Positions 24,690 through 57,300 of a stretch of DNA of 64,000 bases are shown here, in pieces. The notes beneath the pieces are model-generated. The model saw nothing but the letters and a program-made list of their open reading frames with translations. It did no database searches and had not been told where the DNA came from. Made by a program: the position numbers and the translations under genes. Within the stretch, counting starts at the first letter, position 1; the number at the start of each line of letters is the position of its first letter. This stretch comes from Lachnospiraceae bacterium (lineage in GTDB: Bacteria > Bacillota > Clostridia > Lachnospirales > Lachnospiraceae): contig CAVIJY010000002.1 in NCBI GenBank assembly GCA_963643215.1, positions 1,073 through 65,072 on the forward strand, written 5' to 3'.

Positions 24690-25286
24690 CTACTTCCGTT
24701 CATCCTTTTCTTTTTCGATCGACTTCATCTCTTCCTGCTCTATCTGCTTTGCCAGCCGCAGCGTCTGAATGATGTTCGAGGCCAGCACTGCCAGCAGCGG
24801 CAGCAATATGATCGGGAAAAATATCAGAGGATTGGAAGCCAGCCTCACAAGCTTTCCCAGCAGCAGAGACGACCATACCACCTTTCCGATGATTTCACTC
24901 TCGAATACCGGCTCATCGTCGATGCTGTGATTTGCATCACCCTTTGTCCGGAATATAAGTTCTTCGCCTGACTGCTCGATACCCACTATCCTGTGAGTAT
25001 TGACCATGCCCATGATCTGCTCATCCTTGGAATAAAAGGATATCACATCGCCCGTCCTCAGCGCACCCGGATCCTCCTCCCTGACAACTATAAACGAGTC
25101 AACCGGAAGCTCCGGCTCCATGCTGCCCGACATGACACGAAATGCCGAATATCCGAATACCTTCGGTGTATCGCCGCTCTTTGTGTTGATGGCTACAAAC
25201 AGAACATATATCGCCGCAAGAATAATTGCAATTGATATGAAATTGATGATTCCTGTTATCACTTTCCTTATCATGCTGCTTCCCAT
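24690..25286 (-). CDS. sipW: Signal peptidase I, SipW/archaeal type (copy 2)
   Basis: N-terminal TM, catalytic box VMSGSMEP, a second conserved box HRIVG, and a C-terminal TM. It is the last gene of the riboswitch R1 unit. Confidence 0.85.
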   Translation of the reverse strand: MGSSMIRKVITGIINFISIAIILAAIYVLFVAINTKSGDTPKVFGYSAFRVMSGSMEPELPVDSFIVVREEDPGALRTGDVISFYSKDEQIMGMVNTHRIVGIEQSGEELIFRTKGDANHSIDDEPVFESEIIGKVVWSSLLLGKLVRLASNPLIFFPIILLPLLAVLASNIIQTLRLAKQIEQEEMKSIEKEKDERK

Positions 25287-25352
25287 ATCACGCTCGAAGA
25301 GCTCTCCGGGGGTTCAGATCTTTGCCGCTTATACCGCGGCATACGATTCTTG

Positions 25353-27713
25353 TCATTTTCTTCGTCCGAGCACACGGCCTATGTATCCGGACAGACTTGT
25401 ATCGTTCATCTCCCTGCTCAGCTCTCTGCCAAGCTCCCGGCGATTCTCCTCTGATTCGTCAAGCTCTCTTGTCTTTTTCTCAAGCTTTGAAGTAAGCTCC
25501 TCTATGCTCGCCTCCAGCTGTGACAGTTTCAGATCATTGCATGCCCTATCCTCCGCCCGAGCCGCATTTGCTTCGTCAAGCTCTCTTTGGAGCTCTCTTA
25601 AAGGCCTTTGAGCATCGATAGTCTCCTTCAGGCTTGCATTCTCCTGTTCCTGAGCCGATATCCTCTCAAGCAGCTCCTGCTGCGCCGCCTTGAGTCCGTC
25701 AGCCGTATCTCTGAGCTTCTGAAGATTCTCCAGAGCTTTTGAAAGCTCCTCCTGCACGCTGTCGCGAGCCTTCGTCATACGATCAAGCTCTTTTGATGTA
25801 GCTATGCGAAGCTTGTCCGCCACCTTCGCTTTTTCGCTCTCGGAGGCCGCCAGATCCTTATATCTTGCTATGTCCGCGTCGCTCGCCTGTCTGATGCCTG
25901 TAATCTTTGCATTGAACTCGGATACACTCGCCGCATACTTCTCGTTGAGCTTCGCTACACTGTCCTCATGCTCCTCTTTGAGCTTCGCTACACCGGACGC
26001 ATGCTCCGCATTGAGCTTCGCTAAACTTGCCTCATGCTCCGCATTCAGCCTTGCCGTGCCGGCTGTATGCTCCTTCTCGAGCCTTGTAATGTCGGCATCC
26101 TTTTCTTCTCTCAGCTGAGTCATGCTCTCTTCATGCTCCGCGTTGAGCACAGCTATGCTCTCGTCCCGCTCCTTGACAAGTCTGGCCATATCAGCCTCAT
26201 GCTTCGCATTCTGCCTTGCTATCTTTTCATTCTTTTCCTTCACGGCAGCGGCCACCTCAGCCTGTGAAGCTGCGGTTATATCGGCCACGGTTCTGTCCCG
26301 CTCTTCCTCGGCCTTCCTTATACCCTCTGTCTTCTCGGCTTCGGCCTTCTCGATGGCTGCCTGCTTCTCCTCCTCGGCCTTCTTTATACCCTCGGTCTTC
26401 TCAGCCTCGGCCTTCTCGATAGCCGCCTGCTTCTCCTCCTCAGCCTTCCTTATGCCCTCAGTTTTCTCAGCCTCAGCCTTCTCGATAGCCGCCTGCTTCT
26501 CCAGCTGAGCGCTTACGGCAGCGGCCTCCGCGTCAAGTGCCCGATTCTCCGCCTGTGCAGCACGCGCGTCCGCATCAGCTTTTGCATTCTCAGCCTCGAT
26601 GCGAGCCTGCTTTTCCTCCTCGTACTTGGCCTCGGCCTCCAGCTGAGCCTGAGTCACCTCCTCGATGAATACCCGGCGGATCTCCACATCCGGCAGATCC
26701 GGATCATCCACCTTCATCTCCTCTATCTTCTTGATGAACTTCGGGATTCTCTGACGGTGATGCTTCCAAAGCTCCTTCGTCAGCTCTCGATGATCAGGCT
26801 CGAGTATCGACTTGAACACCGCATAGTTCATGATAAAGTTCGAATACAGCTGGAACAGATACTCCTCATCGAACTGCAGCGTCGACTCCTCCACATTTAT
26901 GGAATAGCCGACCTCCTCATATGTCTCCAGAAACTGCCACAGCTTATAGCATATCCTGTAGTCGCGATCCTTCATCAGAAGGTTCGTCCTCTGTATAGGA
27001 CTGCGCACCTGCTGACATCCGTGCATCAGCTCGCAGAATGCGCTGTTTTTCAGAGCCATGGTCATACGCCTCACGCGATCGATACGCATGAAGACATTCA
27101 TATTGTCGCTGTCATTTTCGGCGAAGCTCTGCAGATTTTTTATAGTCATCTCGATCTTATAATCTATCTGCTCGTATGCATCGTCCACATGACTTGAAAA
27201 TGTCAGCTTGTTCCTTTTTTCATCTCCCGTAGACCAGAATATAACATCCGTTCTCTTATCGATGAATCTTACAAGGCGCTGGATGAGGTGGTATATGAAT
27301 CGGTTCTCATAAAGATCATATGTCTCCTCCACAGTTACATTCAGTATCTTTATGGGATTGACCTCACCGTCTTCCGCGCTTGCTATCAGCTGCGTGTTCT
27401 GACTCAGATGACGCACGCTCTCCGAGGAAATTCGCTTGGCAAGGGATACCGGCACGACCTCCTCGTTGGTTTTCAGCATACGGCGCGGATTCTCTATGAT
27501 CTTGTTTATGGAATCCAGCGCCTCCTCGATAGTGGACAGCCACCTCTCGTCCACCACCTTGCGCAGGATCTGATTCGTTTGATTGATCTCATTCTCACCT
27601 GCGCGGATCATGGTGAAAAGATATCTGAAGTACTTGTCGCCCTCCAGCGCTCCGCCTATGTTCTCAGCGTATTTCAGATACAGATCATTAAGTGTTGCGT
27701 TGTTTTCTTCCAT
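25353..27713 (-). CDS. McrC-N-terminal/DUF2357-like protein fused to a ~440-aa coiled coil; no nuclease motif recognised
   Basis: YDLYENRFIYHLIQRL is the McrC/DUF2357 hallmark (my recollection of the family). The C-terminal half is E/K/A-rich heptad sequence with internal repeats. The start was set at MEENNATL, 8 nt after GGGAG. Confidence 0.6.
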   Translation of the reverse strand: MEENNATLNDLYLKYAENIGGALEGDKYFRYLFTMIRAGENEINQTNQILRKVVDERWLSTIEEALDSINKIIENPRRMLKTNEEVVPVSLAKRISSESVRHLSQNTQLIASAEDGEVNPIKILNVTVEETYDLYENRFIYHLIQRLVRFIDKRTDVIFWSTGDEKRNKLTFSSHVDDAYEQIDYKIEMTIKNLQSFAENDSDNMNVFMRIDRVRRMTMALKNSAFCELMHGCQQVRSPIQRTNLLMKDRDYRICYKLWQFLETYEEVGYSINVEESTLQFDEEYLFQLYSNFIMNYAVFKSILEPDHRELTKELWKHHRQRIPKFIKKIEEMKVDDPDLPDVEIRRVFIEEVTQAQLEAEAKYEEEKQARIEAENAKADADARAAQAENRALDAEAAAVSAQLEKQAAIEKAEAEKTEGIRKAEEEKQAAIEKAEAEKTEGIKKAEEEKQAAIEKAEAEKTEGIRKAEEERDRTVADITAASQAEVAAAVKEKNEKIARQNAKHEADMARLVKERDESIAVLNAEHEESMTQLREEKDADITRLEKEHTAGTARLNAEHEASLAKLNAEHASGVAKLKEEHEDSVAKLNEKYAASVSEFNAKITGIRQASDADIARYKDLAASESEKAKVADKLRIATSKELDRMTKARDSVQEELSKALENLQKLRDTADGLKAAQQELLERISAQEQENASLKETIDAQRPLRELQRELDEANAARAEDRACNDLKLSQLEASIEELTSKLEKKTRELDESEENRRELGRELSREMNDTSLSGYIGRVLGRRK
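26306..26503 (-). repeat. In-frame tandem repeat, 3 x 66 nt (22 aa: QAAIEKAEAEKTEGI[RK]KAEEEK)
   Basis: Units start at 26306, 26372 and 26438 and are nearly identical at the DNA level. Confidence 0.9.
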
Positions 27714-27793
27714 CAGATATCTCCCGGCTGCAGACAATCAATCTCCCGCGGGCTCTTCAAAAGCCGGCGGGAGGCATATCCGATCCGCAGCAG

Positions 27794-27856: not shown

Positions 27857-27866
27857 ACGCTGTATT

Positions 27867-29600
27867 TCAATACAGATTCTGGATTCTTGTCAGATAATCC
27901 TGACTGTCCCTCATCTCGTTCTTGCCGAACACCTTCTCCATGTATACCATCAGATTCTTGATCTCATCACGGATGAACATCACATTCTGACTCTCGAACT
28001 TCTTGAGAATCTTTCTTGCAAATATGTAATCAAGACCGCCCAGCTCTGTTCCGCCGCATGCTACATACACGGGGATAAAATCATACATCTGCTTTGTGAT
28101 ACGGTTTCCGAATGCAAGCCTGAAGCGGCTCTGCAGATAGTTGTCAAGCTTTACCATCTTGGCAAGTGTGGCATCGCTTATCGGATGCTCATCCTTGGCC
28201 TTCGCGAAAAGCTCACGAAGATGCGCCGATGTCATCAGAAGCCTCGGCTCCATAGGACATTCAAACGGAGCAGCCTTTTCATTCAGCTCTATGGGCATCG
28301 CACGGTCATAAACCTTGTCGGTGATGGTAAATGTGGAATCGTCGTTGTTCGCCGTTCCGATATACCATGTGTTGTCGCTAACCTTAATCTTGCCGTTCTG
28401 AAGAAGCTCCGGATCCCCCGGCCACGGAGTGGGAACCAGCTCCACGAGCCATTCCTTCTTGTCAGGCATCTCCAGTACAGAAAGCATATCCGCAAAATAG
28501 TACTCTATACGCGCGAGGTTCATCTCATCCAGCACTATCATGGTGACATCCTCTCTGAAGCCCGCCTCATATACGGCCCTCAGAAATTCTGTCTCGTTGA
28601 AGCGCTTTGAGAATTCATTGAAATATCCCAGCAGATCCGTTCTCTCCCTGAATGACGGCTGCACAGATATCATCGTGGCCGGATTGTCAAGATACCGGCT
28701 GAATGAATACGGCAGTGATGTCTTACCTGTACCGGAGATACCCTCCAGAATCAGTATCTGACTCGAGGCCATACCCGCTACAAATCTTCGGACTATCTCA
28801 GGCGTATAGTACAGATGAAGCTGACTTGCGGCAAACCTTCTGTATCCCTCGACGATCTCCTCAAGCGTGACATTCTCATTGTATGCCGGCCACTCGTAGT
28901 CCCTGTACTTCTGATCCACCGCCTCCAGCTTCGGAAAGCGTGATGTGTTCGCACGTTCCTGCTCCTCTGCCGAGCTTTTGGCCTGAGCCACTGCCGTAGC
29001 AGCGGCGGCAGCAGCATTTGCTATGGTATCCGAGCTTATCTCTGCTCCCTCGATATTGCCGCCTATTCCCATGACAGTCCCGGCTGCAGCTCCGCCCTCG
29101 CCGGATACGGCTGTATCCGAGAGAGGATCCACAAGCCCGCCGACCAGTGCGCCTGCAGAACCGGCCGCACCGGGTACGCCGTCCCCATTCAGTCCGGCAG
29201 CTCCGTATCTGGCAAGCTCCTGTGTGGGAACCTTCATGGCGAGTATCTGCTCCTTCTCATCCATCAGCTCGAGCACCTGACGGTTGAGCCTTCCTATCTC
29301 CTTGTACAGCACCATGCTGTCCTGCCCGTCCATCCTCAGAGACGCCACCAGATAGATATGCCGTATGATAAGAATGATGATCAGGATCGGTATGGCTATC
29401 AATATGATCGCAAGGATGATAGACAGAAATCTTGCAACTATATTCATTGATACAAAATACGATCTGAATATGAGAGCGTATTCTCCCCAGCCCGTGATAA
29501 ATACCTTCACAAAGCCATTGATAAAATTCACAACCCATGAAGCTATGTTGTAGATGATTCTTGCTATCAGCTCATATGCGAGCTTGAGAAATTCACTCAT
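27867..29600 (-). CDS. Membrane-anchored McrB-like AAA+ (AAA_5) NTPase
   Basis: N-terminal TM helices (ILAIILIAIPILIIILII), a coiled coil and a G/A-rich linker. Then Walker A GISGTGKTS, Walker B MIVLDEMNLARIEYYF and GTANNDDS (compare McrB GTMNTADRS). The ATG overlaps the sipW stop. Confidence 0.7.
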   Translation of the reverse strand: MSEFLKLAYELIARIIYNIASWVVNFINGFVKVFITGWGEYALIFRSYFVSMNIVARFLSIILAIILIAIPILIIILIIRHIYLVASLRMDGQDSMVLYKEIGRLNRQVLELMDEKEQILAMKVPTQELARYGAAGLNGDGVPGAAGSAGALVGGLVDPLSDTAVSGEGGAAAGTVMGIGGNIEGAEISSDTIANAAAAAATAVAQAKSSAEEQERANTSRFPKLEAVDQKYRDYEWPAYNENVTLEEIVEGYRRFAASQLHLYYTPEIVRRFVAGMASSQILILEGISGTGKTSLPYSFSRYLDNPATMISVQPSFRERTDLLGYFNEFSKRFNETEFLRAVYEAGFREDVTMIVLDEMNLARIEYYFADMLSVLEMPDKKEWLVELVPTPWPGDPELLQNGKIKVSDNTWYIGTANNDDSTFTITDKVYDRAMPIELNEKAAPFECPMEPRLLMTSAHLRELFAKAKDEHPISDATLAKMVKLDNYLQSRFRLAFGNRITKQMYDFIPVYVACGGTELGGLDYIFARKILKKFESQNVMFIRDEIKNLMVYMEKVFGKNEMRDSQDYLTRIQNLY

Positions 29601-30400
29601 ATCCTGTCATCCTTGGATTCAGTCTGTTTTTTTGCGGACTCGTCCGCCTCAAGAGCCGCCAGCCGGGCCTGAGCCTGGGCAAGCTGTCTCTTCAGCCTCT
29701 CGGCCTCTGCCGCAGCATCCTCGCGGTTCTGCGCTCCTTCAGCAGACGCTCCCGCGTTAATCTGCGCCGCTGTACCTTTATCACTGTCCGGCTGCTCTGT
29801 TCGTACATTCTGTGCCGCCTGCGCCGCGGCCTGCGCTGTTTCTATGGCCACAGCCTTCTTCAGCTGGATGCTGACCATGATCAGGTGATATACCTGATAT
29901 ATGAAGAAGATCAGCATCGGCAGAACTATCACCACCAGAAATCCCGTCGAGCTTGACAGAAAGTCGAGCACCTTGCCGAGTCCCTTGACTCTTCCCGTGT
30001 ATTTTCCGACGATATCTCCGTCCGAGATGATATGAGTATCGCTTATCTGGTTGTTATCACCCTTTGTCACATAGGATCTGTATCCGCCGCTCTCGCTTAT
30101 CTCTACGATACGGTGAGTGTTCAGCGCGTACTGATTCAGAATGATGGTATGGAAGGTTATGATATCGCCCTCCTTCAATGTCGCGGGATCAACCTTTTTT
30201 ATGATGATCAGATCTCCCGCATCAAAGGTCGGGGACATTGATTCAGTCTGAACGGACAGCGGAGTATATCCGAACAGGTTGCTTACATTGTTCACGTCTC
30301 TGGTTGCAAGTGTGGTGAAGGTAAAAAGTGCCGCGAGCAGGATGACAGCCCATAACACAACGCTTGCAAGCACCGTCGCAACCTTCTTCAAGACTTCCAT
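29597..30400 (-). CDS. sipW: Signal peptidase I, SipW/archaeal type (copy 1) with C-terminal TM and ~90-aa charged tail
   Basis: Catalytic box VQTESMSP and second box HRIVE. A C-terminal TM is followed by the coiled tail AERLKRQLAQAQARLAALE. Confidence 0.85.
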   Translation of the reverse strand: MEVLKKVATVLASVVLWAVILLAALFTFTTLATRDVNNVSNLFGYTPLSVQTESMSPTFDAGDLIIIKKVDPATLKEGDIITFHTIILNQYALNTHRIVEISESGGYRSYVTKGDNNQISDTHIISDGDIVGKYTGRVKGLGKVLDFLSSSTGFLVVIVLPMLIFFIYQVYHLIMVSIQLKKAVAIETAQAAAQAAQNVRTEQPDSDKGTAAQINAGASAEGAQNREDAAAEAERLKRQLAQAQARLAALEADESAKKQTESKDDRI

Positions 30401-30425: not shown

Positions 30426-31226
30426 TTATTCAAAGGGGATGTTGTTCTCATCAGTGCCTGTGAACTTCATGCGGATCGAAAACTGCTCCGTTTTAAGCTC
30501 ATTTGTGCATTCCTCGTCGCTTCCCTCAAGCCATATGCAGACATCTACGGGTTTGTCCTCCCCGGCGACGGCGGAAAACAAGGCATTTCTGTCATTATAA
30601 ACCATTTCGGTATCATTTGAAATGCCGAAAAATCGCACATTATCAAGGTTTTTGCTTTCATCCCCCATATCCGGATCATATACAAGGAATTTATCATCCA
30701 CTAAAAAGCCTATCCGCATGGCTTTGACCAGCGGCGCGCTGTCCGAGACTATAAGCGTAGCCTCCTCATCCCCGTCCTGCGCCGTAAGATGGACTATCAT
30801 ATCCCTGGATGCCATAAAATGAAGTCTGTATCGGATAAAGTCTCCGCTTTCCTCAGATGCGCTCTGTCCGAACTGATATGTGAATGTGATTCCGTCGTCC
30901 GTTGTGACGGGCTCAAGAGTCTTTGTCGTGATATCAACGCCTGTGTCCTGCAGTATCCTCTCGGCTATCTGATTGAAGCTCAGCGTCTGCACATATTCGT
31001 CGATCGTCTCGTGCGCATCAAGATCAAAACGCAGCGACTGCCCTGTCGTGATGTCAAGCCCTATGCCTCGCAGGCGCGTATTGTCGGCTATCGTAAACCA
31101 CGCCGCCGTGGCTGCCGTGATACTGACAAGAGCAATCAGGGCGATCAGAATCGTAGTTCTGACCGTCGATCTTCTGCTCATATTCAGTCTGTCAGTTCCC
31201 CGCTGCATATTCCTCGTCCCCTGCAT
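30426..31226 (-). CDS. TasA/camelysin-like secreted protein with SipW-type signal (putative fibre subunit)
   Basis: Signal ...ITAATAAWFTIAD. The C-terminus is IWLEGSDEECTNE...FSIRMKFTG. Confidence 0.65.
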   Translation of the reverse strand: MQGTRNMQRGTDRLNMSRRSTVRTTILIALIALVSITAATAAWFTIADNTRLRGIGLDITTGQSLRFDLDAHETIDEYVQTLSFNQIAERILQDTGVDITTKTLEPVTTDDGITFTYQFGQSASEESGDFIRYRLHFMASRDMIVHLTAQDGDEEATLIVSDSAPLVKAMRIGFLVDDKFLVYDPDMGDESKNLDNVRFFGISNDTEMVYNDRNALFSAVAGEDKPVDVCIWLEGSDEECTNELKTEQFSIRMKFTGTDENNIPFE

Positions 31227-31382: not shown

Positions 31383-32273
31383 TCATTCCTGTGTCAGCGC
31401 CGCATAGAATCCGAGCTTCATGGTGACCTCACTTGCTATGATTGATTCTACACAGTCCGGATCACAGCCCTCCAGATAAAAATATATATCCACAAGAACC
31501 GGCGTATTCAGCTCGATGACAGCCAGTGAGCTTTCGGGATATTCAGTCGAATCCGCCGTCATGGTCACTGTGGATATCGCAACAGCCGGATCGTCTACAG
31601 CATTTACGCTGCTTCCGTTCACCTCCAGAACCTGTCCCTCGCTCGCCAGTGTGCTCCCTATGTATGTATTGCTGCGTCTGTCCGAGGTCTCCTGCGCATC
31701 ATCAAAATATAGAATCACCGCGCTTGAGGAATCCTCCGAGAAGACAAATCCCAGCCTTGACGCCGCCAGTATGCCGCTTGAGTTTTCGTCTGTTCCTATG
31801 CTGTCCGTACCTGAGCCCTCATCAAGATATATGGCTGCTTTCATTCCCTCAAACCGATCAGTTCTGTCTGTGCGCACCTCCATATATATCTGGCCGTGAT
31901 AGCAATATGTGCCGTTCTCGTCGATATCTACCTCTTCGTATACGCCGTATCCGTCATTACTGTCCTCGGATATGGATACCGCGTGAGCCCAGCTTTGCAG
32001 ATCGGAGGTGGATACCGGAAGCAGCATATCATCCTCAGAGGAATTGACCCGGCTTATCTCCGCTTCGTCATTCCGGCTCAGATCACCTTCACTTGTTCCG
32101 AGAAGCAGCTCCAGACCGTCCTCCCCGGTGCGACCCGAGGCGTAGCTCGTATAGACCCTCTGGTTTCCCGTAAACCACGCATATGTGGCGCTTCCCAGAG
32201 AAAAGGCAAGGATCATGATCCACGCAAACGATATAAGCAGCGTCTTCTGCATAGAGCCCATATCCATCCTCAT
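31383..32273 (-). CDS. TasA/camelysin-like secreted protein with SipW-type signal
   Basis: Signal ...LGSATYAWFTGN. The C-terminus is YFYLEGCDPDCVES...VTMKLGFYA. Confidence 0.65.
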   Translation of the reverse strand: MRMDMGSMQKTLLISFAWIMILAFSLGSATYAWFTGNQRVYTSYASGRTGEDGLELLLGTSEGDLSRNDEAEISRVNSSEDDMLLPVSTSDLQSWAHAVSISEDSNDGYGVYEEVDIDENGTYCYHGQIYMEVRTDRTDRFEGMKAAIYLDEGSGTDSIGTDENSSGILAASRLGFVFSEDSSSAVILYFDDAQETSDRRSNTYIGSTLASEGQVLEVNGSSVNAVDDPAVAISTVTMTADSTEYPESSLAVIELNTPVLVDIYFYLEGCDPDCVESIIASEVTMKLGFYAALTQE

Positions 32274-32286: not shown

Positions 32287-33153
32287 TCAATCCGAATCAA
32301 CGCCTATACCGGCAAATCCCATATTGAATCTCACATCCCCGCCCTGAACATCATTGACACAGCCGTCATCGCAGCCCTCAAGATAAAGATAATATTCCAC
32401 GGTTATGACCGTATTGGCCGGAATCAGTGCCAGCGCGCGGCTTCCCGCGGTAAAGTCGTTCTGGCCTGCCGAATATGCCATATATCCGGCGATATCCTCT
32501 GCGGGATCGGCGACAAATGCAGGATATCCGCCCGCATCGACTCCGTCAATAACGACATTTTCCTTTTCTACGGTGAGTGATGCCTCCGGAGTGGAGCCTG
32601 TCCTGTCCATGTCCAGCTGATCGAGCGCGAGTATCACACGTGCCAGCTCGTCTCCTGTGGACTCATTGCGCAATACCAGTCCGAGACGCGCCGCCTGCTC
32701 GGCGCCGTTGCCCATGGTAAAGAGCATGTCGGCTCTGTTCAGATATACATTGCAATCCTGATTTTCCGCCAGCAGATAGACATTTCCGTGAAATATCATG
32801 GCATCAAGCGTCGACTGAACGGTGATCTCCCGAAATCCGGTGGATATGCCGTTCCTGTCCTGAGCGATTGACTCATACCAGCGCTCGAGTGTGGATGTCG
32901 ATACCGGGTACAGGCTCTCGGACTCATTGTTCTGATATGAGAGCGCACACTCTGTGCCGAAGGAGCCGCTGTAGGAATCCGAAATCTTCAGATCCACGCC
33001 GCCCCGCCCTACGGAGCCCGCCATAGGCGTGATATTGGTATCAACGCCGAATGTAAACCACGCAAAAGCAGCTCCTCCCAGCGCCAGAAGCGCCAAAAGA
33101 AGCCATACCAGAGATGCAAGCAGTGTGGTTTTCCTCAGCGAATTTTTATCCAT
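32287..33153 (-). CDS. TasA/camelysin-like secreted protein with SipW-type signal
   Basis: Signal ...LGGAAFAWFTFG. The C-terminus YLYLEGCDDGCVNDVQGGDVRFNMGFAG resembles camelysin FLDNGKDQNKFQGDSIKLDFTFDAT. Confidence 0.7.
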   Translation of the reverse strand: MDKNSLRKTTLLASLVWLLLALLALGGAAFAWFTFGVDTNITPMAGSVGRGGVDLKISDSYSGSFGTECALSYQNNESESLYPVSTSTLERWYESIAQDRNGISTGFREITVQSTLDAMIFHGNVYLLAENQDCNVYLNRADMLFTMGNGAEQAARLGLVLRNESTGDELARVILALDQLDMDRTGSTPEASLTVEKENVVIDGVDAGGYPAFVADPAEDIAGYMAYSAGQNDFTAGSRALALIPANTVITVEYYLYLEGCDDGCVNDVQGGDVRFNMGFAGIGVDSD

Positions 33154-36475: not shown

Positions 36476-36482
36476 CGATACC

Positions 36483-36511
36483 ATGATACCATCCATTTCA
36501 GCGTAAATCAA
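36483..36511 (-). promoter_or_regulatory. Sigma-A-type promoter for R1 (TTGATT-17-TATCAT)
   Basis: -35 at 36511-36506 and -10 at 36488-36483, about 8 nt upstream of the aptamer. Confidence 0.6.
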
Positions 36512-48288: not shown

Positions 48289-48299
48289 AATGGCTCCTC

Positions 48300-49544: not shown

Positions 49545-49650
49545 AAAAAATCAGCCGCTGCAAATATATATTATCTGCAACTGGCTGACTTATTCAAGTC
49601 CCTTTAGCTTTGCGTCACCGCTTCACAACGGCTTTGCCCCTCTATTTGTG
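49543..49650 (-). promoter_or_regulatory. c-di-GMP-I (GEMM-I) riboswitch R2 with terminator
   Basis: Minus strand reads GAGGGGCAAAGCCGTT-GTGA-AGCGGTGACGCAAAGCTAAAGGGACTT..AAGTCAGCCAGTTGC. The terminator is TCAGCCAGTTGCAGAT..ATTTGCAGCGGCTGA plus T8, and its 5' arm overlaps the aptamer 3' strand. Confidence 0.88.
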
Positions 49651-49657
49651 TATACAC

Positions 49658-49686
49658 AGTTTAACGTCACAACCGACTCTTGTCAA
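49658..49686 (-). promoter_or_regulatory. Sigma-A-type promoter for R2 (TTGACA-17-TAAACT)
   Basis: -35 at 49686-49681 and -10 at 49663-49658. Confidence 0.55.
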
Positions 49687-50329: not shown

Positions 50330-50511
50330 GCAGCTATATTATACCCGTTTCGCGTGTATTTTCAATGGTGTGTCGCGCAGAATTTTGCATGGAATAAATG
50401 TGTTTCTATCTCATTATTCGTTGTAAAAAATGTGGTTATGCAGCGAAATTTCGTCGCAATTTTTGTGATTATATATTATACTGTGCCTATATCATAAACG
50501 GAGGTGCCCAT

Positions 50512-51810
50512 ATGTACCGTATTGCAATTGAAAAGCTATCAAAATGGAAGGAAAGCAAGCATCGCAAACCTTTGATTATCGAAGGTGCCCGGCAGGTTGG
50601 CAAGACCTGGCTGATGAAAGAATTCGGCAGACAGGCTTATGCCGATACCGTATATATCAATTTTGACTCCAATTCCAGAATGACAGAGCTGTTTGCTTCC
50701 GATCTGGATACGGAGCGGCTGATAATGGGATTAGAGTTATATATCGGACGCAAAATTGATCCTGACAATTCATTGCTGATATTTGATGAAGTGCAGGAAG
50801 TCCCGAGAGCGCTAAGTTCACTCAAATATTTCTACGAGAACGCCCCTCAATATCACATCATGTGTGCAGGATCCCTGCTCGGCATCGCTATGCATCAGGG
50901 CACATCTTTCCCCGTAGGCAAGGTGGATTTTCTAAAGCTGTATCCTCTTTCTTTCAGGGAATTTCTGATGGCCACCGGCAAAGAGCATTACGCAGAATTA
51001 CTTGTTAAACAGGATTTTAAAATGATTACAGGCTTCAAGCAGACATACATCGATGCCTTGAAGCACTATTACTTTGTCGGCGGGATGCCCGAAGCGGTAC
51101 AAATTTTTGTTGAAAGTTGGGATTTTAGTGAGGTTCGCAGAATTCAAAGCGGAATCCTGGCAGCATACGAGCAGGATTTTTCCAAACATGCTCCCAATGA
51201 AATTGTTCCGAGGCTGCGCATGCTGTGGAACAGCATACCCTCGCAGCTGGCAAAAGAAAATAAGAAGTTTATCTATGGTCTTGTTCGTGAGGGTGCCAGA
51301 GCCAAAGATTATGAAACAGCAATCATGTGGCTCAGCGACTGCGGTCTCGTCCACAAGGTAAGCCGCATCAGCGCAGCGGATATCCCTTTGCGGGCACATG
51401 AGGATCTTAAAGCCTTTAAACTGTTTGTGTTGGATGTCGGACTTCTTGGCTGCATGACCGGACTGCGCCAGAGCACTTTGCTTGACGGCAATAGTCTTTT
51501 TGTAGAGTTCAAAGGCGCACTGACAGAACAGTATGTTTATCAGCAGCTCAAAACTGTCGATGGTCTAGAGGTTTATTACTACACCAACGACAGAGGATCC
51601 TGTGAGGTGGACTTTGTCGTTGATACCGGTGAAATGATTATTCCCGTAGAGGTGAAGGCAGAAGTAAACCTGAAAGCCAAGAGTCTGAAAACCTATCGGG
51701 AGAGATTTTCTCCCGAAATTTCCGTTCGCACATCCATGGCGGACTATAAAAAAGAGGACTGGCTCATCAATCTGCCGCTGTATGCTATAGATCAGATTGC
51801 GAATATATAG
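50512..51810 (+). CDS. AAA-domain ATPase with DUF4143 C-terminus
   Basis: Start MYRIAIEKL follows GGAGGTG. Walker A GARQVGKTW and Walker B LLIFDEVQ. The architecture is typical of the widespread AAA_14/DUF4143 family. Confidence 0.8.
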   Translation: MYRIAIEKLSKWKESKHRKPLIIEGARQVGKTWLMKEFGRQAYADTVYINFDSNSRMTELFASDLDTERLIMGLELYIGRKIDPDNSLLIFDEVQEVPRALSSLKYFYENAPQYHIMCAGSLLGIAMHQGTSFPVGKVDFLKLYPLSFREFLMATGKEHYAELLVKQDFKMITGFKQTYIDALKHYYFVGGMPEAVQIFVESWDFSEVRRIQSGILAAYEQDFSKHAPNEIVPRLRMLWNSIPSQLAKENKKFIYGLVREGARAKDYETAIMWLSDCGLVHKVSRISAADIPLRAHEDLKAFKLFVLDVGLLGCMTGLRQSTLLDGNSLFVEFKGALTEQYVYQQLKTVDGLEVYYYTNDRGSCEVDFVVDTGEMIIPVEVKAEVNLKAKSLKTYRERFSPEISVRTSMADYKKEDWLINLPLYAIDQIANI

Positions 51811-51930: not shown

Positions 51931-53088
51931 TTATGTCGTAGGCATCTTGCACTGATTCGTTACATCAACCGGATACAGTCCGTCCACCAGCTTGTATACA
52001 AAACTGGATGTACCAAATGTTGTGCTAGTCGTGTACAGCTTTGTTCCGTCTGTCATAGCTACGCTAAGCTCGTAGTACTTTGTGCCGTCGATCGCGACTG
52101 TCTTGTCATCAGTTGTCTGTGCTGTCGCTGTCGACAGATCTGTCTTTGCTGCTGTGCTTGTTGCATTCAGCTTGGTTACAGCATCTGTTGTATCATCCTG
52201 AAGTGTTATCGCAACATCCAGATTCCATGCATCCGTCAGATTTGCAAATGTCGAGTTGGTGCACTTCTTATCCATACCTTCGATCCACATACGTATGGCA
52301 ACCTTATAGTACCTTGTCTCACCTGCAGCGATGTTGTCATCAATCACAGCATTTTCATTATTGGGTGTAAAGTCACAGGTCGCCACACTTGTCTCGCCCT
52401 CTACAGCTTCTGTACCATTTTGGTATTCATAACCGGTAGGTGCATATACCCACTTAAGGCTTGCCTTATCGATGGGGGCAACAGAAGTACTTTGTGTTGT
52501 TGTACCGGCATCTGTGACAAATACTGCTGTACGGAATGCCTTGATGGCCTCTGCATCTACACCGCCGTATACAAGATTAAGTCCTGTCATCACAACCTTC
52601 TGAGCAGAGGAGCCTGTGTTTACAGCCTTAAGACGGAAAACATAGTCTATATAACCCTTAGCACCATCAGTAGTCTTTATCTCATAGTTCTCAGAGAACT
52701 TGTTCTTGTATCCTGCAGATCCTGCCTCCTGGCCTGTAGTTGCATATTCAATAAATACATTATCGATTTGTGAACCGTCAGCTCTTGCATTTTTTGTGCT
52801 TGTATAGTAGAAATCATCGCCGTCAATCGTCGAAACAGGCTCCAGCAATGCGCTCTGCGACTGAACCAGCGCAGTCGCGAAATCTGTTTCAGGCACAGGA
52901 GTAGTCTGATTCTCTATTGTATCTTTCGCGATGAACAGGTTGTTGCTTACCTTTGTCGTCACGCTCATGCCTGTAGCCGTAACCTTGTTGTTTATCGCAA
53001 ACCATGCATATGTCGAGCTGCCGAGTGCTATAGCTGCGACCAGCACCATTGCGATTGCAGCCATCAGCTGCCTTCTTAATGCCTTCAT
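51931..53088 (-). CDS. TasA/camelysin-like secreted protein with SipW-type signal (candidate major subunit; monocistronic)
   Basis: Signal MKALRRQLMAAIAMVLVAAIALGSSTYAWFAINN, a strong RBS (GGAGG) and the C-terminus IRMWIEGMDKKCTNS. Confidence 0.7.
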   Translation of the reverse strand: MKALRRQLMAAIAMVLVAAIALGSSTYAWFAINNKVTATGMSVTTKVSNNLFIAKDTIENQTTPVPETDFATALVQSQSALLEPVSTIDGDDFYYTSTKNARADGSQIDNVFIEYATTGQEAGSAGYKNKFSENYEIKTTDGAKGYIDYVFRLKAVNTGSSAQKVVMTGLNLVYGGVDAEAIKAFRTAVFVTDAGTTTQSTSVAPIDKASLKWVYAPTGYEYQNGTEAVEGETSVATCDFTPNNENAVIDDNIAAGETRYYKVAIRMWIEGMDKKCTNSTFANLTDAWNLDVAITLQDDTTDAVTKLNATSTAAKTDLSTATAQTTDDKTVAIDGTKYYELSVAMTDGTKLYTTSTTFGTSSFVYKLVDGLYPVDVTNQCKMPTT

Positions 53089-53218: not shown

Positions 53219-53330
53219 AAAAAAACACATCTGCACCCTTTCGAAGCACAAATGTGGCAACTGGCTGACTGAGATCCCAGTCCCTCTAGTTTTGCGTCAC
53301 AACCTCACGATTGCTTTGCCCTTATCACTT
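53219..53330 (-). promoter_or_regulatory. c-di-GMP-I (GEMM-I) riboswitch R3 with terminator
   Basis: Minus strand reads AAGGGCAAAGCAATC-GTGA-GGTTGTGACGCAAAACTAGAGGGACTGGG..TCAGTCAGCCAGTTGCC. A CACATTTGTGC..GTGCAGATGTG hairpin and T7 follow. Confidence 0.85.
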
Positions 53331-53336
53331 GGTTCG

Positions 53337-53365
53337 AGTATAACTGCTGCAATAGCTAAAATCAA
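53337..53365 (-). promoter_or_regulatory. Sigma-A-type promoter for R3 (TTGATT-17-TATACT)
   Basis: -35 at 53365-53360 and -10 at 53342-53337, with the aptamer starting about 8 nt downstream. Confidence 0.6.
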
Positions 53366-53480: not shown

Positions 53481-54752
53481 TCACTGTGTGCCGGAAGCAT
53501 CCGTGCTCTCGCTCTGCTCTCCCCCGTTGCGTCTGGTATACCAGTTCACATTCTGATACTTGAAGTAGTCGGGAGCTTCTGTTCCTGCCGCGCCGATGGG
53601 TCTGTCTCCGCTGATGCTGTCCTTGATATCCTGTATGAACTTCGCAAGGAGCGTGGTTTCATTGTTGTCCGCCGCCGCGATGTTCATAGAGAACTCGACC
53701 GAGCCGCCTATGATGTCATCGATGCACTCGGGATCGTCTCCCTCCATCCATATGACGACAGTATACTTGTTGACATATCCTACCTTGAAGTCATTCTCCT
53801 GAAATGAGCATACCACCTTGGGGCTTTCAAAGTTCACGCAGCCCTGCTCCGGCTCCCCGCCGGCAGACGGCCATGCATACACTGTTCTGACTCCGTCTCT
53901 CCATACGGCGACTCTCGCCGCCTCCTCTGCGCCCTTGGAGCTGGAGTCCAGCGTGACTCTAGCTATATAGTCCACATCCTCCTTGCCCGCATTTCTCACA
54001 TAATAGGTATATGCCATATAGTTGCGTCCGTTATGACCCCCGTCCACATCCGCTATATCAAACGGCAGATCCTCTATGGATATATTGGTCGCGTCCTCCA
54101 CATGACTTGCCACAAGCCTTGCGGTAGGCGATGTAAACTCGGGATCCGCCGACATGGCTATTCCCTTCCTGAAAAGCTCAAGTCTGTCCAGATTGATGGT
54201 GAAGTTGCCCATCCGCTCCTGCATGAACGCCAGTATGAAAAGAAGCGCTATCGCCATGAGCGACCCCATCAGAAAGAGTCGCATTTTGTCAAGCCTCAGC
54301 AGAGCCCGTCCTATCAGCTTCGCGCGTCTTACGGGGATATATGTGCTGAGTACATCGCGGGTATCCTCCTGATTGTAGTTGTAATCAGCCTTTCCGATAT
54401 CCTCGACACGAACCATGCGGAAGCTCTGCCGCTTCTTACTTCTTTTGAAGAGTCTTTTTTTTGAGTTCTCCGGTTCGCCGTCTCTGTCCGCACGAGCAAA
54501 CCGTCGAAGACCACGCGACTGCTTTTTCTGCCCCTCGGGGAGCTGAGCTTTGCCTGAGGCTTCATTCTCACCCGGAGTCTGAGTCCATCCCGGAGCCTTG
54601 ATCTCGCCCGAAGCCTCCGGCTGCCCGTCACTTCGAGTATCAGCTCTCTCGGGTTCGGTCTCCTGCATCTCCTCCTCGAGCGGATCTCCTATCTCATATT
54701 CATTTGTATCGGCATCCTGTCTGTACTTGTCATGCCAGTGCTTATCATTCAT
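53481..54752 (-). CDS. Membrane-anchored TasA-like protein (acidic cytoplasmic N-terminus, one TM, extracellular TasA-like domain)
   Basis: TM LFLMGSLMAIALLFILAFM without an A-W-F cleavage-type motif. The C-terminus VVIWMEGDDPECIDDIIGGSVEFSMNIAA is shared with the fibre-subunit family. Confidence 0.6.
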   Translation of the reverse strand: MNDKHWHDKYRQDADTNEYEIGDPLEEEMQETEPERADTRSDGQPEASGEIKAPGWTQTPGENEASGKAQLPEGQKKQSRGLRRFARADRDGEPENSKKRLFKRSKKRQSFRMVRVEDIGKADYNYNQEDTRDVLSTYIPVRRAKLIGRALLRLDKMRLFLMGSLMAIALLFILAFMQERMGNFTINLDRLELFRKGIAMSADPEFTSPTARLVASHVEDATNISIEDLPFDIADVDGGHNGRNYMAYTYYVRNAGKEDVDYIARVTLDSSSKGAEEAARVAVWRDGVRTVYAWPSAGGEPEQGCVNFESPKVVCSFQENDFKVGYVNKYTVVIWMEGDDPECIDDIIGGSVEFSMNIAAADNNETTLLAKFIQDIKDSISGDRPIGAAGTEAPDYFKYQNVNWYTRRNGGEQSESTDASGTQ

Positions 54753-54785: not shown

Positions 54786-55466
54786 TCAGAGCTTGTATAC
54801 CTTTCTTGCGTGCTCTACATACAGAGCCATCCGCTCCTTCTCCTCCGGGTCTGCAAAGCGGTACTGGATACCGCACATGAACTTGTACATGCTGCCCTTC
54901 GGAGCCTCCCGCTCCCAGCATACGACTCCGGATATATCGTCAATCCCGGCGCCGTCCGGCTCCGTGCCCACACGCGGCAGACTGCAGTTTATGACCTCGC
55001 CCACCTCGAATCTGCTGCTCATAAAGAGCGCCATACCTCCTGCGGAGATATCCAGCGTGAAGCCCTCGCTCGGCTCTATCACGCCATCCGCATTGACAGG
55101 CCAGGTCTCCGACATATAGCTCATGCGAAGAGATATCCTGTATCGTGTGTCCTGACGCTGCGTGTACTGACGCTGGTTGCTGACCCTGCGTATCTTCCAG
55201 CAGCTTCTGAAGCCCTCCGTGACCGCATCATCGGCAAATCCCGCTATGATCATCTCCTCGGAGCCTGACTCATAGCGGAACAGGAGCTTTTGCATATTGT
55301 CGAACTCGGCTTTTCTGCCGTCGCTCATCGGTACGGTTATCAGAAATGCCGCATCATCCACCTGCTTCACGAAGGTGCATATCATATTGAATTGCGGATC
55401 CTGCCCTGCGGGCATCTCCCTTGCGGCCTGCATTCGCATGCCCGGTTTTATCGTAAGCTCAGCCAT
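54786..55466 (-). CDS. YcgR-like PilZ-domain c-di-GMP receptor
   Basis: RxxxR (QRQDTRYRI) and D-x-S-x-x-G (LDISAGGMAL) PilZ motifs in the C-terminal half, with an N-terminal PilZN-like half. Confidence 0.75.
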   Translation of the reverse strand: MAELTIKPGMRMQAAREMPAGQDPQFNMICTFVKQVDDAAFLITVPMSDGRKAEFDNMQKLLFRYESGSEEMIIAGFADDAVTEGFRSCWKIRRVSNQRQYTQRQDTRYRISLRMSYMSETWPVNADGVIEPSEGFTLDISAGGMALFMSSRFEVGEVINCSLPRVGTEPDGAGIDDISGVVCWEREAPKGSMYKFMCGIQYRFADPEEKERMALYVEHARKVYKL

Positions 55467-57300
55467 CTAAACTCTCTTTCCTGTATATGTCGCACATTTT
55501 ATCATAGACCGCCTTGAATGTCTCTATGAGCCGCGGTCCGAAGGAGCCGCATTCCCCGTCAAGTATCATGCGGTACACCTGTGACGGTGCATACGCGTCC
55601 TTGTATGAGCGCGGGCTGATGAGCGCGTCAAAGACATCCGCAAGCGAAACCGCCTGCACGCCTATCGATATCTCGTCTCCCTTCAGCCCCTCCGGATAGC
55701 CTCCTCCGTCATATCTTTCGTGATGATGGAGCGCCACATCTCTGCAGCATGCAAGCATCTCCTCCTGTCCTCTGGCATGGATACGGTCTATGATCTGCGC
55801 CCCGCGCAGCGTATGACTGCGCATGATTTCATGCTCCTCCTCGCTGAGCACACCCGGCTTGTTCAATATGGCATCCGGTACGGCGATCTTTCCTATATCG
55901 TGCATCACGGCGGCCATTGCATACATATCTACGGTGCTTTTGTTCAGTCCGTAATGCGGGCTGCGCTCCGAGAGATCCGTGAGCAGTATCCTGACCAGCT
56001 CGGATACATGCGCTATATGCGGGCCGCTTTCGACATTTCGAAACTCAACAAGACCTGCCATCGTGATGAGCATGATCTGGTTGTATTCATCGAGCCTGGC
56101 CTGCTCCAGACGCTCCGACTGCTGCGCCTTGTACTGCGTGATCCTGTCGATATCGTTGCGGTAAACCCTGTACCGGCTCCTGCCTATGGGCACCAGTATC
56201 TCGGAATATGTCTTTGCCTTTCTCGAGCCGGGACGGTTCAGCACCGTCTCCATGATATACTGTCCGTCTCTGACAGCCTTTTTCAGAAAGTTCTCATCCA
56301 GCAGCCGCATGTATCTGCTCTGCGTCTCCTGCGGGATGATCCCGTGCCTCGCGTAGCTGTCTATCTGCCCGGAAAAGCTGTATGACTTCTCCATACGCAC
56401 GAAGCGGCCTTTCTTCTTCTCATACGGGAACAGTCTGTCGCCGTCGATGTCTATCTCGTATATCCCGTCAAAAAGCGCCGCCAGATCCGGATCCTCGATA
56501 AATGCTTTGTTCTCCAGCGCAAGTCCGTTCTGTATCATGCCGTTGTCGTACTGGCTGGTCACGGCCTTGATATATATGATGCCGCGGTATCTCCTGACTT
56601 TTCCTGAGATCTCCGGTATCCGCTCGAATCGAAGCTGTATGTACTGCGGCTCGTTCTCTCTGCGGATACAGACTATGCTTGTAACCTCGGTTCTCCCCTC
56701 GTCAAATGCCGCCGTAAGCGACTTTCTGCTCCAGTGCTTTTGAAGTATGAGAGACGAGTCGTCATCCACCAGTTCAAGCAGATATGTCAGCAGTGCCTCG
56801 TAGCGTCCCCTCCTCGGCAGCTTTGCAGATCCGTCAGCGGCCTGACTCTGCGCATCCTCCGGGGTCTTCGAAGAATCTTCTCCCTCTCCGGTTCCGGCCT
56901 CGCTCTCATCAACTATCCTTCCCGTGCCGCTTTCGATATGATATGAGTCGCCTCCTATATCGGCAGATGCCACCAGAAGATATATCTTCTCCATGACTTT
57001 CGCGATTCTGACGCCTGCGTACCCGCCGTCACCATCCTCCGGGGAGCTCTTCGGCTGCTCCGGGCGTGAGTACCTGACTGTTTTGGATGTATTGATCCTG
57101 CGCACAGGCTCTTCCGCGCCCTCTTCGTCCTTCGGAAGGATCCCGAACATGCGAAGAGCGGCAGCTGCGCTGCGCAGCGTGCTGCCGTTCCTCGATCTTT
57201 TCTCCGTCATCCCCGTGAGAACAGCGTCTCTCGGACTTGCGGAGCCATATTCATCTGTCTCGCCGGCTTCCTGTCTCGGGCTTTCGTCTTCATCAAACAC
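55459..57300 (-). CDS. HD-GYP domain phosphodiesterase (c-di-GMP hydrolase type) with large unknown N-terminal region
   Basis: AAVMHDIGKIAVP...HHHERYDGGGYPEGL...LADVFDAL. Its stop overlaps the PilZ gene start by 8 nt. Confidence 0.8.
   Translation of the reverse strand: MFDEDESPRQEAGETDEYGSASPRDAVLTGMTEKRSRNGSTLRSAAAALRMFGILPKDEEGAEEPVRRINTSKTVRYSRPEQPKSSPEDGDGGYAGVRIAKVMEKIYLLVASADIGGDSYHIESGTGRIVDESEAGTGEGEDSSKTPEDAQSQAADGSAKLPRRGRYEALLTYLLELVDDDSSLILQKHWSRKSLTAAFDEGRTEVTSIVCIRRENEPQYIQLRFERIPEISGKVRRYRGIIYIKAVTSQYDNGMIQNGLALENKAFIEDPDLAALFDGIYEIDIDGDRLFPYEKKKGRFVRMEKSYSFSGQIDSYARHGIIPQETQSRYMRLLDENFLKKAVRDGQYIMETVLNRPGSRKAKTYSEILVPIGRSRYRVYRNDIDRITQYKAQQSERLEQARLDEYNQIMLITMAGLVEFRNVESGPHIAHVSELVRILLTDLSERSPHYGLNKSTVDMYAMAAVMHDIGKIAVPDAILNKPGVLSEEEHEIMRSHTLRGAQIIDRIHARGQEEMLACCRDVALHHHERYDGGGYPEGLKGDEISIGVQAVSLADVFDALISPRSYKDAYAPSQVYRMILDGECGSFGPRLIETFKAVYDKMCDIYRKESLDG

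Follow-up and report, generated by a model that had tools for sequence, protein, structure and literature searches.

Comparative analysis of a Lachnospiraceae locus that links SipW-type signal peptidases and a McrB-like GTPase to candidate surface-fibre subunits in gut Clostridia

Introduction

The TasA/TapA/SipW system of Bacillus subtilis and the CalY/TasA proteins of Bacillus cereus are fibre systems with a SipW signal peptidase in the operon (PMC9674648, PMC10151520). Here we describe a locus from a Lachnospiraceae bacterium (GenBank assembly GCA_963643215.1, contig CAVIJY010000002.1, positions 1,073 to 65,072) that resembles them in part. This whole stretch of 64,000 nucleotides is called the window, and the locus occupies positions 24690-57300 of it. 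An earlier note, made from the sequence alone, had proposed that the locus encodes an elaborate SipW/TasA-like fibre-adhesin system gated by cyclic di-guanosine monophosphate (c-di-GMP). Its core encodes four small exported paralogues, two SipW-type signal peptidases, a McrB-like GTPase and a McrC homologue. On balance, the region is probably a conserved surface-fibre (pilus-like) system of gut Clostridia, of the kind named CoCoPALM.

The locus shares with TasA systems the SipW gene in the operon, a signal peptide that ends in small-x-Ala and is followed by aromatic-Phe, a conserved N-terminal strand (G-x-L-D-L in TasA, G-x-x-L-L-I-S here) and a beta-sandwich body, which is predicted here. An accessory anchoring or initiating protein is present in the TasA system (TapA), and its counterpart here is possibly the membrane-anchored paralogue p423 together with the four small paralogues. 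The locus differs in having six to seven paralogues rather than one or two, two SipWs, a GTPase/McrC pair, and control by c-di-GMP instead of SinR/Spo0A. Archaeal AbpA bundling pili and CanA cannulae are also donor-strand fibres with beta-sandwich subunits and belong to the TasA superfamily (PMC9245690; PDB 7UEG, 7UII, 9DLO), but no sequence relationship between them and the window subunits was found.

In Clostridium perfringens, the BsaA/BsaB/BsaC-SipW operon encodes TasA-like polymerising proteins, and BsaA uses isopeptide locking (PMC7395162, PMC11580942). BsaA oligomers were reported to be membrane-anchored rather than peptidoglycan-anchored (PMC7395162, PMC11580942). Kivimaki et al. (PMC11580942) showed that BsaC needs type IV pilus genes to be secreted and that BsaA oligomers need them to be secreted efficiently, which is a precedent for a SipW operon linked to an NTP-driven machine. 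The likeness to the present locus lies in the clostridial sipW operon, the large co-encoded exported protein and this link; the Bsa machine is a type IV pilus set encoded elsewhere, whereas here a McrBC derivative lies inside the operon. The background assumed in the earlier note, that such fibres need only Sec and SipW, is dated in view of this dependence and of the finding that TapA is a chaperone (PMC10151520).

McrBC homologues that are associated with SipW and carry an FtsB-like anchor were named CoCoPALM ("pilus assembly linked to McrBC") in one paragraph by Bell et al. (2024; PMC11090510), as a clade of NxD-type McrB GTPases, and their study was deferred. The SipW-McrBC link was therefore already named, if without analysis and independently of the present locus, and an equivalent, of which the earlier note knew no description, exists in name. 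No follow-up to CoCoPALM was found in the literature searched, SipW, TasA and PilZ do not appear in the supplements of Bell et al. (2024), and a literature search on SipW/TasA combined with c-di-GMP riboswitches or McrB returned nothing else. Apart from its name, the system is uncharacterised.

Results and Discussion

An alignment of the McrB-like protein was scanned against one genome per species, and at least 339 genomes at species level carry this GTPase. The best 80 loci of that scan were compared (numbered L001 onwards), and every open reading frame (ORF) was assigned to its best-matching window protein. Co-occurrence counts are limited to loci with enough flanking sequence (loci with room); full flanks were available for 30. 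Essentially every one of the 80 loci has an eight-gene core in fixed order: subunit paralogues 1, 2, 3 and 4 (s351, s288, s296, s266), signal peptidase SipW-A, the McrB-like gene, the DUF2357 gene encoding the McrC homologue, and signal peptidase SipW-B. The same order was first seen on contigs with homologues of the 288-aa paralogue. Among loci with room, the four paralogues are present in 63/65, 66/68, 68/69 and 73/74, respectively, the DUF2357 gene is present in 70/70, SipW-A lies upstream of the McrB-like gene in 76/77, and SipW-B lies downstream of it in 53/53. The 80 loci come from different species of Lachnospiraceae, Oscillospiraceae and relatives, including cultured Jingyaoa shaoxingensis, three Blautia and a Sporofaciens. 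The machine genes are 52-70% identical, compared to 26-40% for the subunits. A coherent system rather than a chance neighbourhood was expected from the window alone, and the fixed order and the co-conservation of sipW, the McrB-like gene and the subunit family bear this out. Coupling of NTPases to SipW was also expected, and it stands for the McrB-like and DUF2357 genes; it fails for a third candidate, a 768-aa AAA+ ATPase that is absent from all 80 loci.

SipW-type enzymes are recognized by TIGR02228 (SipW / archaeal-type signal peptidase I), which has a cutoff of 51.85 bits. SipW-A (29597-30400, minus strand, 267 aa) scores 104.3 bits and has a cytoplasmic coiled-coil tail. SipW-B (24690-25286, minus strand, 198 aa) is encoded by the last gene of the core operon, scores 96.3 bits and has two transmembrane (TM) segments. 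Both keep the catalytic serine motif S-x-S-M-x-P, the NTHRI histidine and GD(N/A)N (GDAN in SipW-B), in agreement with the two archaeal-type signal peptidases read earlier from the sequence. The SipW-A stop codon overlaps the start of the McrB-like gene. Apparent single-ORF fusions of SipW and the McrB-like protein in two loci (L001:12605-14482 and L002:7259-9151), which would have argued strongly for physical coupling, were rejected as artefacts of a run of N in the contigs.

The McrB-like protein (27867-29600, minus strand, 577 aa) is a membrane-anchored AAA+ GTPase of the AAA_5 type. It has a conserved hydrophobic N-terminus, a TM segment at residues 61-79, a heptad region, a low-complexity linker and the NTPase domain, with Walker A GISGTGKT and Walker B VLDEMNLAR. 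The sequence GTANNDDST is invariant across 22 orthologues and can be read as NxD followed by D, as Bell et al. (2024) describe, or as NxxD. Invariant residues also occur within the N-terminal membrane region, and the heptad-like stretch that follows the TM segment is conserved, with invariant residues L98...V124 upstream of the NTPase domain. No Pfam DivIC/FtsB match was seen on this protein. The adjoining McrC homologue (25353-27737, minus strand, 794 aa) has a DUF2357 N-domain (PF09823, 47.6 bits, cutoff 23.3), followed by a coiled coil of about 450 aa (449 residues) that is rich in A, E and K. PF09823 is its sole Pfam/NCBIfam match, and no nuclease domain was detected; in the PDB, only the coiled coil of ATP synthase b was matched. 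Its orthologues (DUF2357, L004-L083) range from 520 to 1313 aa with a median of 651, the coiled-coil part being variable and the N-domain conserved. From its sequence, the McrC homologue appears to have lost its nuclease and gained a long coiled coil. The pair described earlier as a membrane-anchored McrB-like NTPase with a McrC-like coiled-coil partner is thus recovered in the AAA_5 match, the TM anchor and the adjoining DUF2357 protein.

These features correspond to the CoCoPALM description. The window has a McrB-like GTPase with an N-terminal TM segment and coiled coil (FtsB-like), a DUF2357 McrC homologue with a coiled coil, and signal-peptidase genes; its N-N-D-D signature is compatible with the NxD(+D/E) clade, and the core fits the published paragraph point for point. 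The text on CoCoPALM covers neither the four-paralogue family nor the SipW/TasA-type signal, and a second SipW, a PilZ-anchored paralogue, an HD-GYP protein and riboswitches are likewise missing from it and from its supplements. The three riboswitches and two giant SipW-type proteins of the window go beyond that text and are found in few related loci. The subunit family, the pair formed by PilZ and its anchored partner, and the riboswitch wiring appear to be undescribed.

The McrBC-derived genes bear directly on two rival explanations. In an ordinary TasA/camelysin matrix-fibre locus that uses only Sec and SipW, the NTPase genes would be unrelated neighbours, such as a restriction or defence module. 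Its signal-peptide class would match and sipW would adjoin, as observed; the GTPase domain matches the PADLOC defence-candidate model PDC-M26A (E 2e-36), and the two other ATPase genes of the region are unrelated, defence-like insertions. Unrelated neighbours would not be expected to lie between two sipWs in every locus (70/70, 53/53), nor to be the best conserved of the whole module, as the McrB-like and McrC-like genes are. The membrane anchoring of the GTPase, the invariant residues in its N-terminal membrane region, the lack of a nuclease domain in the McrC homologue and the fact that the subunits are not members of Peptidase_M73 also speak against an ordinary TasA locus, which we consider very improbable.

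A CoCoNuT-related membrane conflict or defence system is the other. Its exported proteins would remodel or shield the surface (for example, phage receptors), and its GTPase would sense infection. No nuclease or other effector domain was found in the Pfam/NCBIfam scans, and the linkage to PilZ, HD-GYP and c-di-GMP riboswitches brings in signals of sessile life. The locus lies among housekeeping genes, in the same order across families, and not in a variable island. We give this explanation little credence, even though the GTPase falls in a clade of CoCoNuT-like McrB homologues (PMC11090510), matches PDC-M26A and is accompanied by hypervariable subunits.

The four core subunit paralogues are encoded on the minus strand. 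Paralogue 1 (s351) extends from 33160 to a probable start at 34074, which gives a protein of 304 aa; the ORF was listed to 34215, but a Shine-Dalgarno sequence precedes M48, and the longer ORF would overlap the upstream gene. Paralogue 2 (s288; 32287-33153) has 288 aa, paralogue 3 (s296; 31383-32273) has 296 aa, and paralogue 4 (s266; 30426-31226) has 266 aa. Related proteins are encoded by three further minus-strand genes: p385 (51931-53088), a single gene behind its own riboswitch and a candidate for the major subunit; p410 (48300-49406, ORF listed to 49532); and p423 (53481-54752). The p423 protein has a 155-aa cytoplasmic tail, one TM segment (159-177) and an ectodomain. The longest-ORF starts of the 351-aa, 410-aa and 1407-aa ORFs (34215, 49532 and 47304) probably lie too far upstream; the probable starts are 34074, 49406 and 47214, each preceded by a good Shine-Dalgarno sequence. 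Relatives of the small paralogues are p385, p410 and, in its C-terminal part, p423, with scores from 1e-101 down to 1e-5 against a hidden Markov model (HMM) of the small family (E 7e-16 for p410), and p385 matches the core family by hhalign with 99.4% probability (E 1e-21).

A signal end of the form [S/T/A]-x-A↓W-[F/Y] (arrow, predicted cleavage site) closes the hydrophobic N-terminal segment in eight proteins. Examples are TFA↓WY in paralogue 1, TYA↓WF in paralogue 3, TAA↓WF in paralogue 4 and SRA↓WF in p410. A weaker version, TGA↓WQ, is found in a ninth protein, p311. All nine signal ends obey the -3/-1 rule of type I signal peptidases. A C-terminal block, [WYF]xEGxDxx[C/A], is common to seven proteins (YLEGCDPDC in paralogue 3, WLEGSDEEC in paralogue 4, WLEGTDSAA in p410, WMEGDDPEC in p423). 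The counts given in the earlier note were correct, eight signal ends plus a ninth, with both giant proteins among the eight, and seven blocks; its family member with an uncleaved-looking TM anchor is p423, which has the block, a single TM segment and no cleavage motif.

Scanning 1.84 billion cluster representatives in full (E<=1e-3) returned 5918 relatives of the subunit family, and homologues of p385 number >1229. An exact-protein look-up of one of these p385 homologues (P0197) found no record. No window subunit matched a Pfam or NCBIfam family at E<=0.01, so this is a large family without a model. The subunits appear to be a distinct, Pfam-less beta-sandwich family, apparently undescribed. 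Downstream of p423, genes of the p385 type often occur as two or three tandem diverged copies (L016, L027, L039, L044, L080), which would fit an exposed, variable major subunit; p385 is likely the major subunit. Just downstream of genes of the p385/p410 type, a "drum" RNA (Rfam RF02958, 89-92 bits) was seen in two loci (L016:18524-18635 and L035:18743-18854).

In donor-strand systems such as TasA, an N-terminal extension is conserved and is not accommodated within the monomer (PMC9674648). The mature start of TasA is A28 in PDB 8AUR, after cleavage at G-G-G-T-W-A, and the small-x-A↓W-[FY] end of the window subunits parallels the GGGTWA↓AF of TasA. In the subunits, the five-residue cleavage motif is the most conserved part of the protein (mean majority-residue fraction per column 0.91-0.92), and the 27 residues after it are conserved at 0.62-0.70, compared to 0.50-0.52 for the remainder. 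AlphaFold2 models of paralogue 2 and p385 (pLDDT, the predicted local distance difference test score, 86 and 85.8) consist of a signal helix and a beta sandwich with a low-confidence linker between them, and the helix is detached from the globular domain. The conserved mature N-terminal residues have pLDDT <50, and confidence is low at residues 18-40 of p385. By analogy with TasA, the mature N-terminus may act as a donor strand. A comparison of the core family with an alignment of 42 collected TasA/CalY proteins by hhalign covers 57 N-terminal columns only (E 2e-4, probability 45%), which hold the signal peptide and first strand; for the p385 family, the values are E 0.026 and probability 1.9%.

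Type IV pilins and archaellins were considered for p385. Its Arch_flagellin match is below threshold (20.8 vs 29.5 bits) and covers the hydrophobic N-terminus only, and no prepilin peptidase or PilB/PilC-type genes were found in the window region or the 80 loci; the reading was rejected for these reasons.

Large exported proteins accompany the core. The first gene of the core operon encodes p679 (34079-36118, minus strand), an acidic exported protein of 679 aa with an ordinary Sec signal (PGTWA↓SEE). Relatives of p679 were found only in L004 and L011, and it matches no family. The position upstream of paralogue 1 is usually taken by a large exported protein, which varies from one locus to another and reaches 3547 aa, and we regard this as a putative variable "cargo" position. 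Two giant exported proteins with SipW-type signal ends are encoded elsewhere in the region, one of 1335 aa (38998-43005, minus strand, SFA↓WY) and one from the 1407-aa ORF (43081-47214, minus strand, listed to 47304, SLA↓WY). They are paralogous, as had been noted (50% identity over 570 aa), and share only the signal region with the small-paralogue family. The 1335-aa giant has no Pfam or PDB match; relatives of the 1407-aa giant are found in L005 and L021. The exported protein p311 (47368-48303, minus strand, 311 aa) is without the WxEGxD block, and its orthologue is found in L005. Even loose-threshold Pfam/NCBIfam scans returned nothing for the giants, p679, p423, p311 or a 3014-aa partial ORF of L001.

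The chief rival explanation concerns these large proteins. The locus could encode a pseudopilus-type secretion machine in which the four paralogues and the major one form a short, GTPase-driven piston that pushes large folded proteins through peptidoglycan. Type II secretion has four minor and one major pseudopilin, and here there are exactly four conserved single-copy paralogues plus variable extras. In most loci, the gene immediately upstream of the four paralogues encodes a large exported protein (3547 aa in L001 and L003, p679 in the window), ORFs >1600 aa that are cut by the locus end occupy this slot in many others, and the dependence of BsaC and BsaA oligomer secretion on type IV pilus genes (PMC11580942) is a precedent. 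The upstream proteins are, however, non-homologous among loci, and most have ordinary Sec signals. In addition, a type I-like peptidase acting at the outer face seems to cleave the subunits, which would thereby lose their membrane helix, whereas pseudopilins keep theirs, and the very numerous, variable and often tandem relatives of p385 are as expected of an exposed major subunit. A secretion piston is therefore unlikely, if still the alternative to be taken most seriously.

Clostridioides difficile pilA1 and CD2831 lie behind c-di-GMP-II riboswitches, and a collagen adhesin of Bacillus thuringiensis lies behind a c-di-GMP-I riboswitch. The window resembles these cases in that Firmicutes surface adhesion structures are placed behind c-di-GMP riboswitches with terminator platforms; those riboswitches control type IV pilins or sortase-anchored adhesins and not a SipW-dependent system. 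Literature searches found no SipW-dependent system behind a c-di-GMP riboswitch.

One ATPase gene (50398-51810) is on the plus strand; the minus strand carries all other genes of the region. In the order of transcription, HD-GYP, PilZ and p423 are followed by leader 3 and p385. The ATPase gene, of the DUF4143 type, lies next on the opposite strand. Leader 2, p410, p311, the 1407-aa giant and the 1335-aa giant follow, then the gene for the 768-aa ATPase (AAA768). The last part consists of leader 1, p679, the four small paralogues, SipW-A, the McrB-like gene, the DUF2357 gene and SipW-B, which ends at 24690. The leaders were identified by a promoter and terminator scan plus folding and by Rfam RF01051 (c-di-GMP-I, gathering score 35 bits), all matches spanning model positions 1-87. 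Leader 1 (36363-36511, minus strand) has promoter-like hexamers at 36511-36483, an aptamer at 36474-36395 (62.1 bits) and a hairpin followed by seven T at 36399-36363. Leader 2 (49543-49686, minus strand) has hexamers at 49686-49658, an aptamer at 49648-49573 (56.2 bits) and a terminator at 49588-49543. Leader 3 (53219-53365, minus strand) has hexamers at 53365-53337, an aptamer at 53330-53253 (59.0 bits) and a 13-bp hairpin followed by seven T at 53256-53219. With promoter-like hexamers, an aptamer and a hairpin with T-run in each leader, there are three separately controlled units: (i) p385, (ii) p410, p311 and the two giant SipW-type proteins, and (iii) p679 and the core operon.

In leader 2, the 5' arm of the terminator is the 3' strand of the second (3') helix of the aptamer, which makes this an ON-type design. 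The architecture is clear, and the ligand response is predicted from it. In leaders 1 and 3, the terminator hairpin abuts the aptamer. A covariance model built from the three aptamers found riboswitches in five other loci (L005, L009, L022, L027, L032), where their positions match the three in the window, in front of paralogue 1, p385 and p410. The riboswitch of L005 precedes p410 as leader 2 does, and those of L027 and L022 lie upstream of p385 orthologues. Nearly the whole arrangement of the window is found in L005 in one direction (riboswitch, p410, p311, giant, core, HD-GYP, PilZ, p423). Orthologues of p410 occur in 6/30 full-flank loci.

A repeat of about 95-120 nt with the end motif TTACGCGAAGCAATGAGCCAARGTC was found near these leaders. 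It occurs five times in the window (36161-36185, 36340-36364, 49427-49451 and 49520-49544 on the minus strand, 17522-17546 on the plus strand), with 0 expected by chance. The repeat begins right after the terminator T-run in leaders 1 and 2, and at 17.5 kb it also follows a hairpin and T-run. A predicted hairpin with three compensatory pairs is common to the three copies. No Rfam family matches the repeat, and the 90 loci retrieved lack it; it may represent an intergenic repeat specific to this genome or an additional leader element. The ATG at 49532, the listed start of p410, is inside the repeat, 10 nt after the T-run, and has no Shine-Dalgarno sequence.

Two proteins upstream of leader 3 complete the c-di-GMP components. 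The PilZ-domain receptor (54786-55466, minus strand, 226 aa) scores 41.1 bits against PF07238 (vs 22.5) and has RQDTR at residue 104 (RxxxR) and DISAGG at 139 (DxSxxG). The HD-GYP phosphodiesterase (55459-57300, minus strand, 613 aa) scores 88.2 bits against HD_5 and has the motifs HD467, HHE526 and GYP534 and an uncharacterised N-terminal region. The three GEMM-I (c-di-GMP-I) riboswitches, the PilZ protein and the HD-GYP protein proposed earlier are thus all present, with aptamers above the gathering score and intact protein motifs. PilZ, p423 and p385 lie within 10 kb in about half of the full-flank loci; p423 is directly downstream of PilZ in 27/28 cases, and HD-GYP adjoins the core in L005, L009, L011, L020, L026 and L042. 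Gating by c-di-GMP, a central part of the earlier proposal, is backed by PilZ in 14/30 full-flank loci and by riboswitches at the same positions in five other loci; it does not define the system.

These components can be combined into a mechanism for a surface-fibre system. High c-di-GMP would permit transcriptional read-through and turn the operons on. Subunits would be exported by Sec and held by their signal anchor until SipW cuts after small-x-Ala, releasing an N-terminal segment that is highly conserved and has no structure in the monomer model. The freed segment could then serve as donor strand for polymerisation, as in TasA, on a membrane-anchored p423 base. The four single-copy paralogues would form an initiating, capping or tip complex and may carry the large variable exported proteins. 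At the inner face of the membrane, a ring of the McrBC-derived GTPase with its McrC partner would drive or gate assembly through the conserved membrane segment; the fibre could thereby be pushed through the wall or pulled back. PilZ with c-di-GMP would act on the cytoplasmic tail of p423, and HD-GYP would reset the signal. Taken in full, this would be a new class of Gram-positive filament, with assembly, extrusion or retraction powered by a membrane-tethered GTPase ring derived from McrBC, two SipWs, donor-strand subunits and double c-di-GMP control (riboswitches on the transcripts, PilZ on the anchored base subunit). We propose this fuller version tentatively and rate its chances at somewhat less than even.

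Several results weigh against a surface-fibre system. With signal peptides trimmed, no similarity to TasA/CalY was left by hhalign (E 0.17). Since the profile-profile comparison otherwise reaches only the signal peptide and first strand, the alignment of the C-terminal block with camelysin, put forward in the earlier note, is unsupported. None of the nine window proteins (0/9) matched Peptidase_M73 (PF12389) at E<=0.01, and matches below threshold were seen in only 4/42 homologues (best E 8e-4), although this is the commonest sub-threshold Pfam match among the 42 family members. The commonest sub-threshold NCBIfam match is TIGR04088, a model of the SipW-cognate signal (11/42 members), and no family of SipW-exported proteins other than this signal model was found in that scan. 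These sub-threshold matches do speak for a signal peptide of the TasA class. The term TasA-like is therefore apt for the SipW-type signal peptide and the N-terminal strand and does not extend to the mature domain. A TasA/camelysin jelly-roll had been expected of structure models; both have a beta sandwich, and Foldseek found no PDB match at E<=1e-3 for either (TM-scores 0.1-0.3). At the top of the weak Foldseek lists are subunits of donor-strand fibres, namely AbpA (7UEG), CanA, FimA, Ena and TasA (fibre 8AUR). None of these scores is significant (8AUR, E 0.09 and TM 0.14/0.21; AbpA, E 0.027; AbpA and CanA over both models, E 0.03-0.05, probability 0.3-0.5 and TM 0.14-0.33), and the resemblance of the models is suggestive only.

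The machine and its control also leave room for doubt. Sequence and profile searches of the PDB, including one with a 22-sequence profile of the McrB-like protein, did not reach McrB; whether the query was the subunit family, the McrB-like protein, the McrC homologue or a giant, no useful match was returned, the hits being an antibody fragment, midasin and ATP synthase b. The McrB assignment comes from a weak AAA_5 match, the DUF2357 partner, the PADLOC PDC-M26A match and the literature. The GTPase is cytoplasmic, whereas the subunits are outside the membrane. For leaders 1 and 3, folding gives no ON or OFF call. Only about 5/83 related loci have riboswitches and about half have PilZ, so control by c-di-GMP is frequent but not defining. 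Finally, we infer the polymerisation of the subunits, their dependence on SipW and their surface exposure.

Two ATPase genes of the region do not belong to the conserved system. AAA768 (36522-38828, minus strand, 768 aa) is an AAA+ ATPase that resembles the defence ATPase IetA (PADLOC IetA, E 2e-39). It had been taken for a two-domain ATPase, but it has only one canonical AAA domain (residues 546-668) and one Walker A/B pair. It was rejected as part of the machine, being absent from the 80 loci although it would fall within their flanks, with its relatives in a different cassette; it probably has its own promoter. The relatives (L084-L089), from metagenomes, are found in a conserved three-gene cassette, in which the AAA+ gene is followed by genes for two partners, one of about 181 aa and one large (870-1532 aa). 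Neither partner has a Pfam match or is present in the window, so AAA768 is an orphan there. The AAA_14/DUF4143 ATPase (50398-51810, plus strand) was identified by Pfam matches and a very strong match to the PADLOC defence candidate PDC-S01 (E 9e-186). Its gene sits between two riboswitch-controlled units and is not conserved with the system. Both genes are best read as unrelated, defence-type insertions between operons.

Other elements of the window were also identified. Directly upstream of the HD-GYP gene and on the same strand, a secreted protein with choline-binding (cell-wall-binding) repeats is encoded at 57346-59118 (minus strand); it was not seen beside the system in other loci. A Clostridiales-1 RNA (14795-14985, minus strand, 115 bits) and a thiamine pyrophosphate riboswitch (15625-15756, minus strand, 57 bits) lie outside the region.

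Conclusion

Lachnospiraceae and Oscillospiraceae dominate the commensals of human and animal guts, and their attachment to mucus, fibre particles and each other is poorly understood. The locus described here gives concrete content to the CoCoPALM class, which so far has been a name only. If the reading proposed here is true, this would be the first fibre machine built from the motor of a restriction enzyme, and it would show how an AAA+ GTPase can couple to a signal peptidase. It would also provide a c-di-GMP-controlled adhesion organelle in gut Firmicutes that is directly testable.

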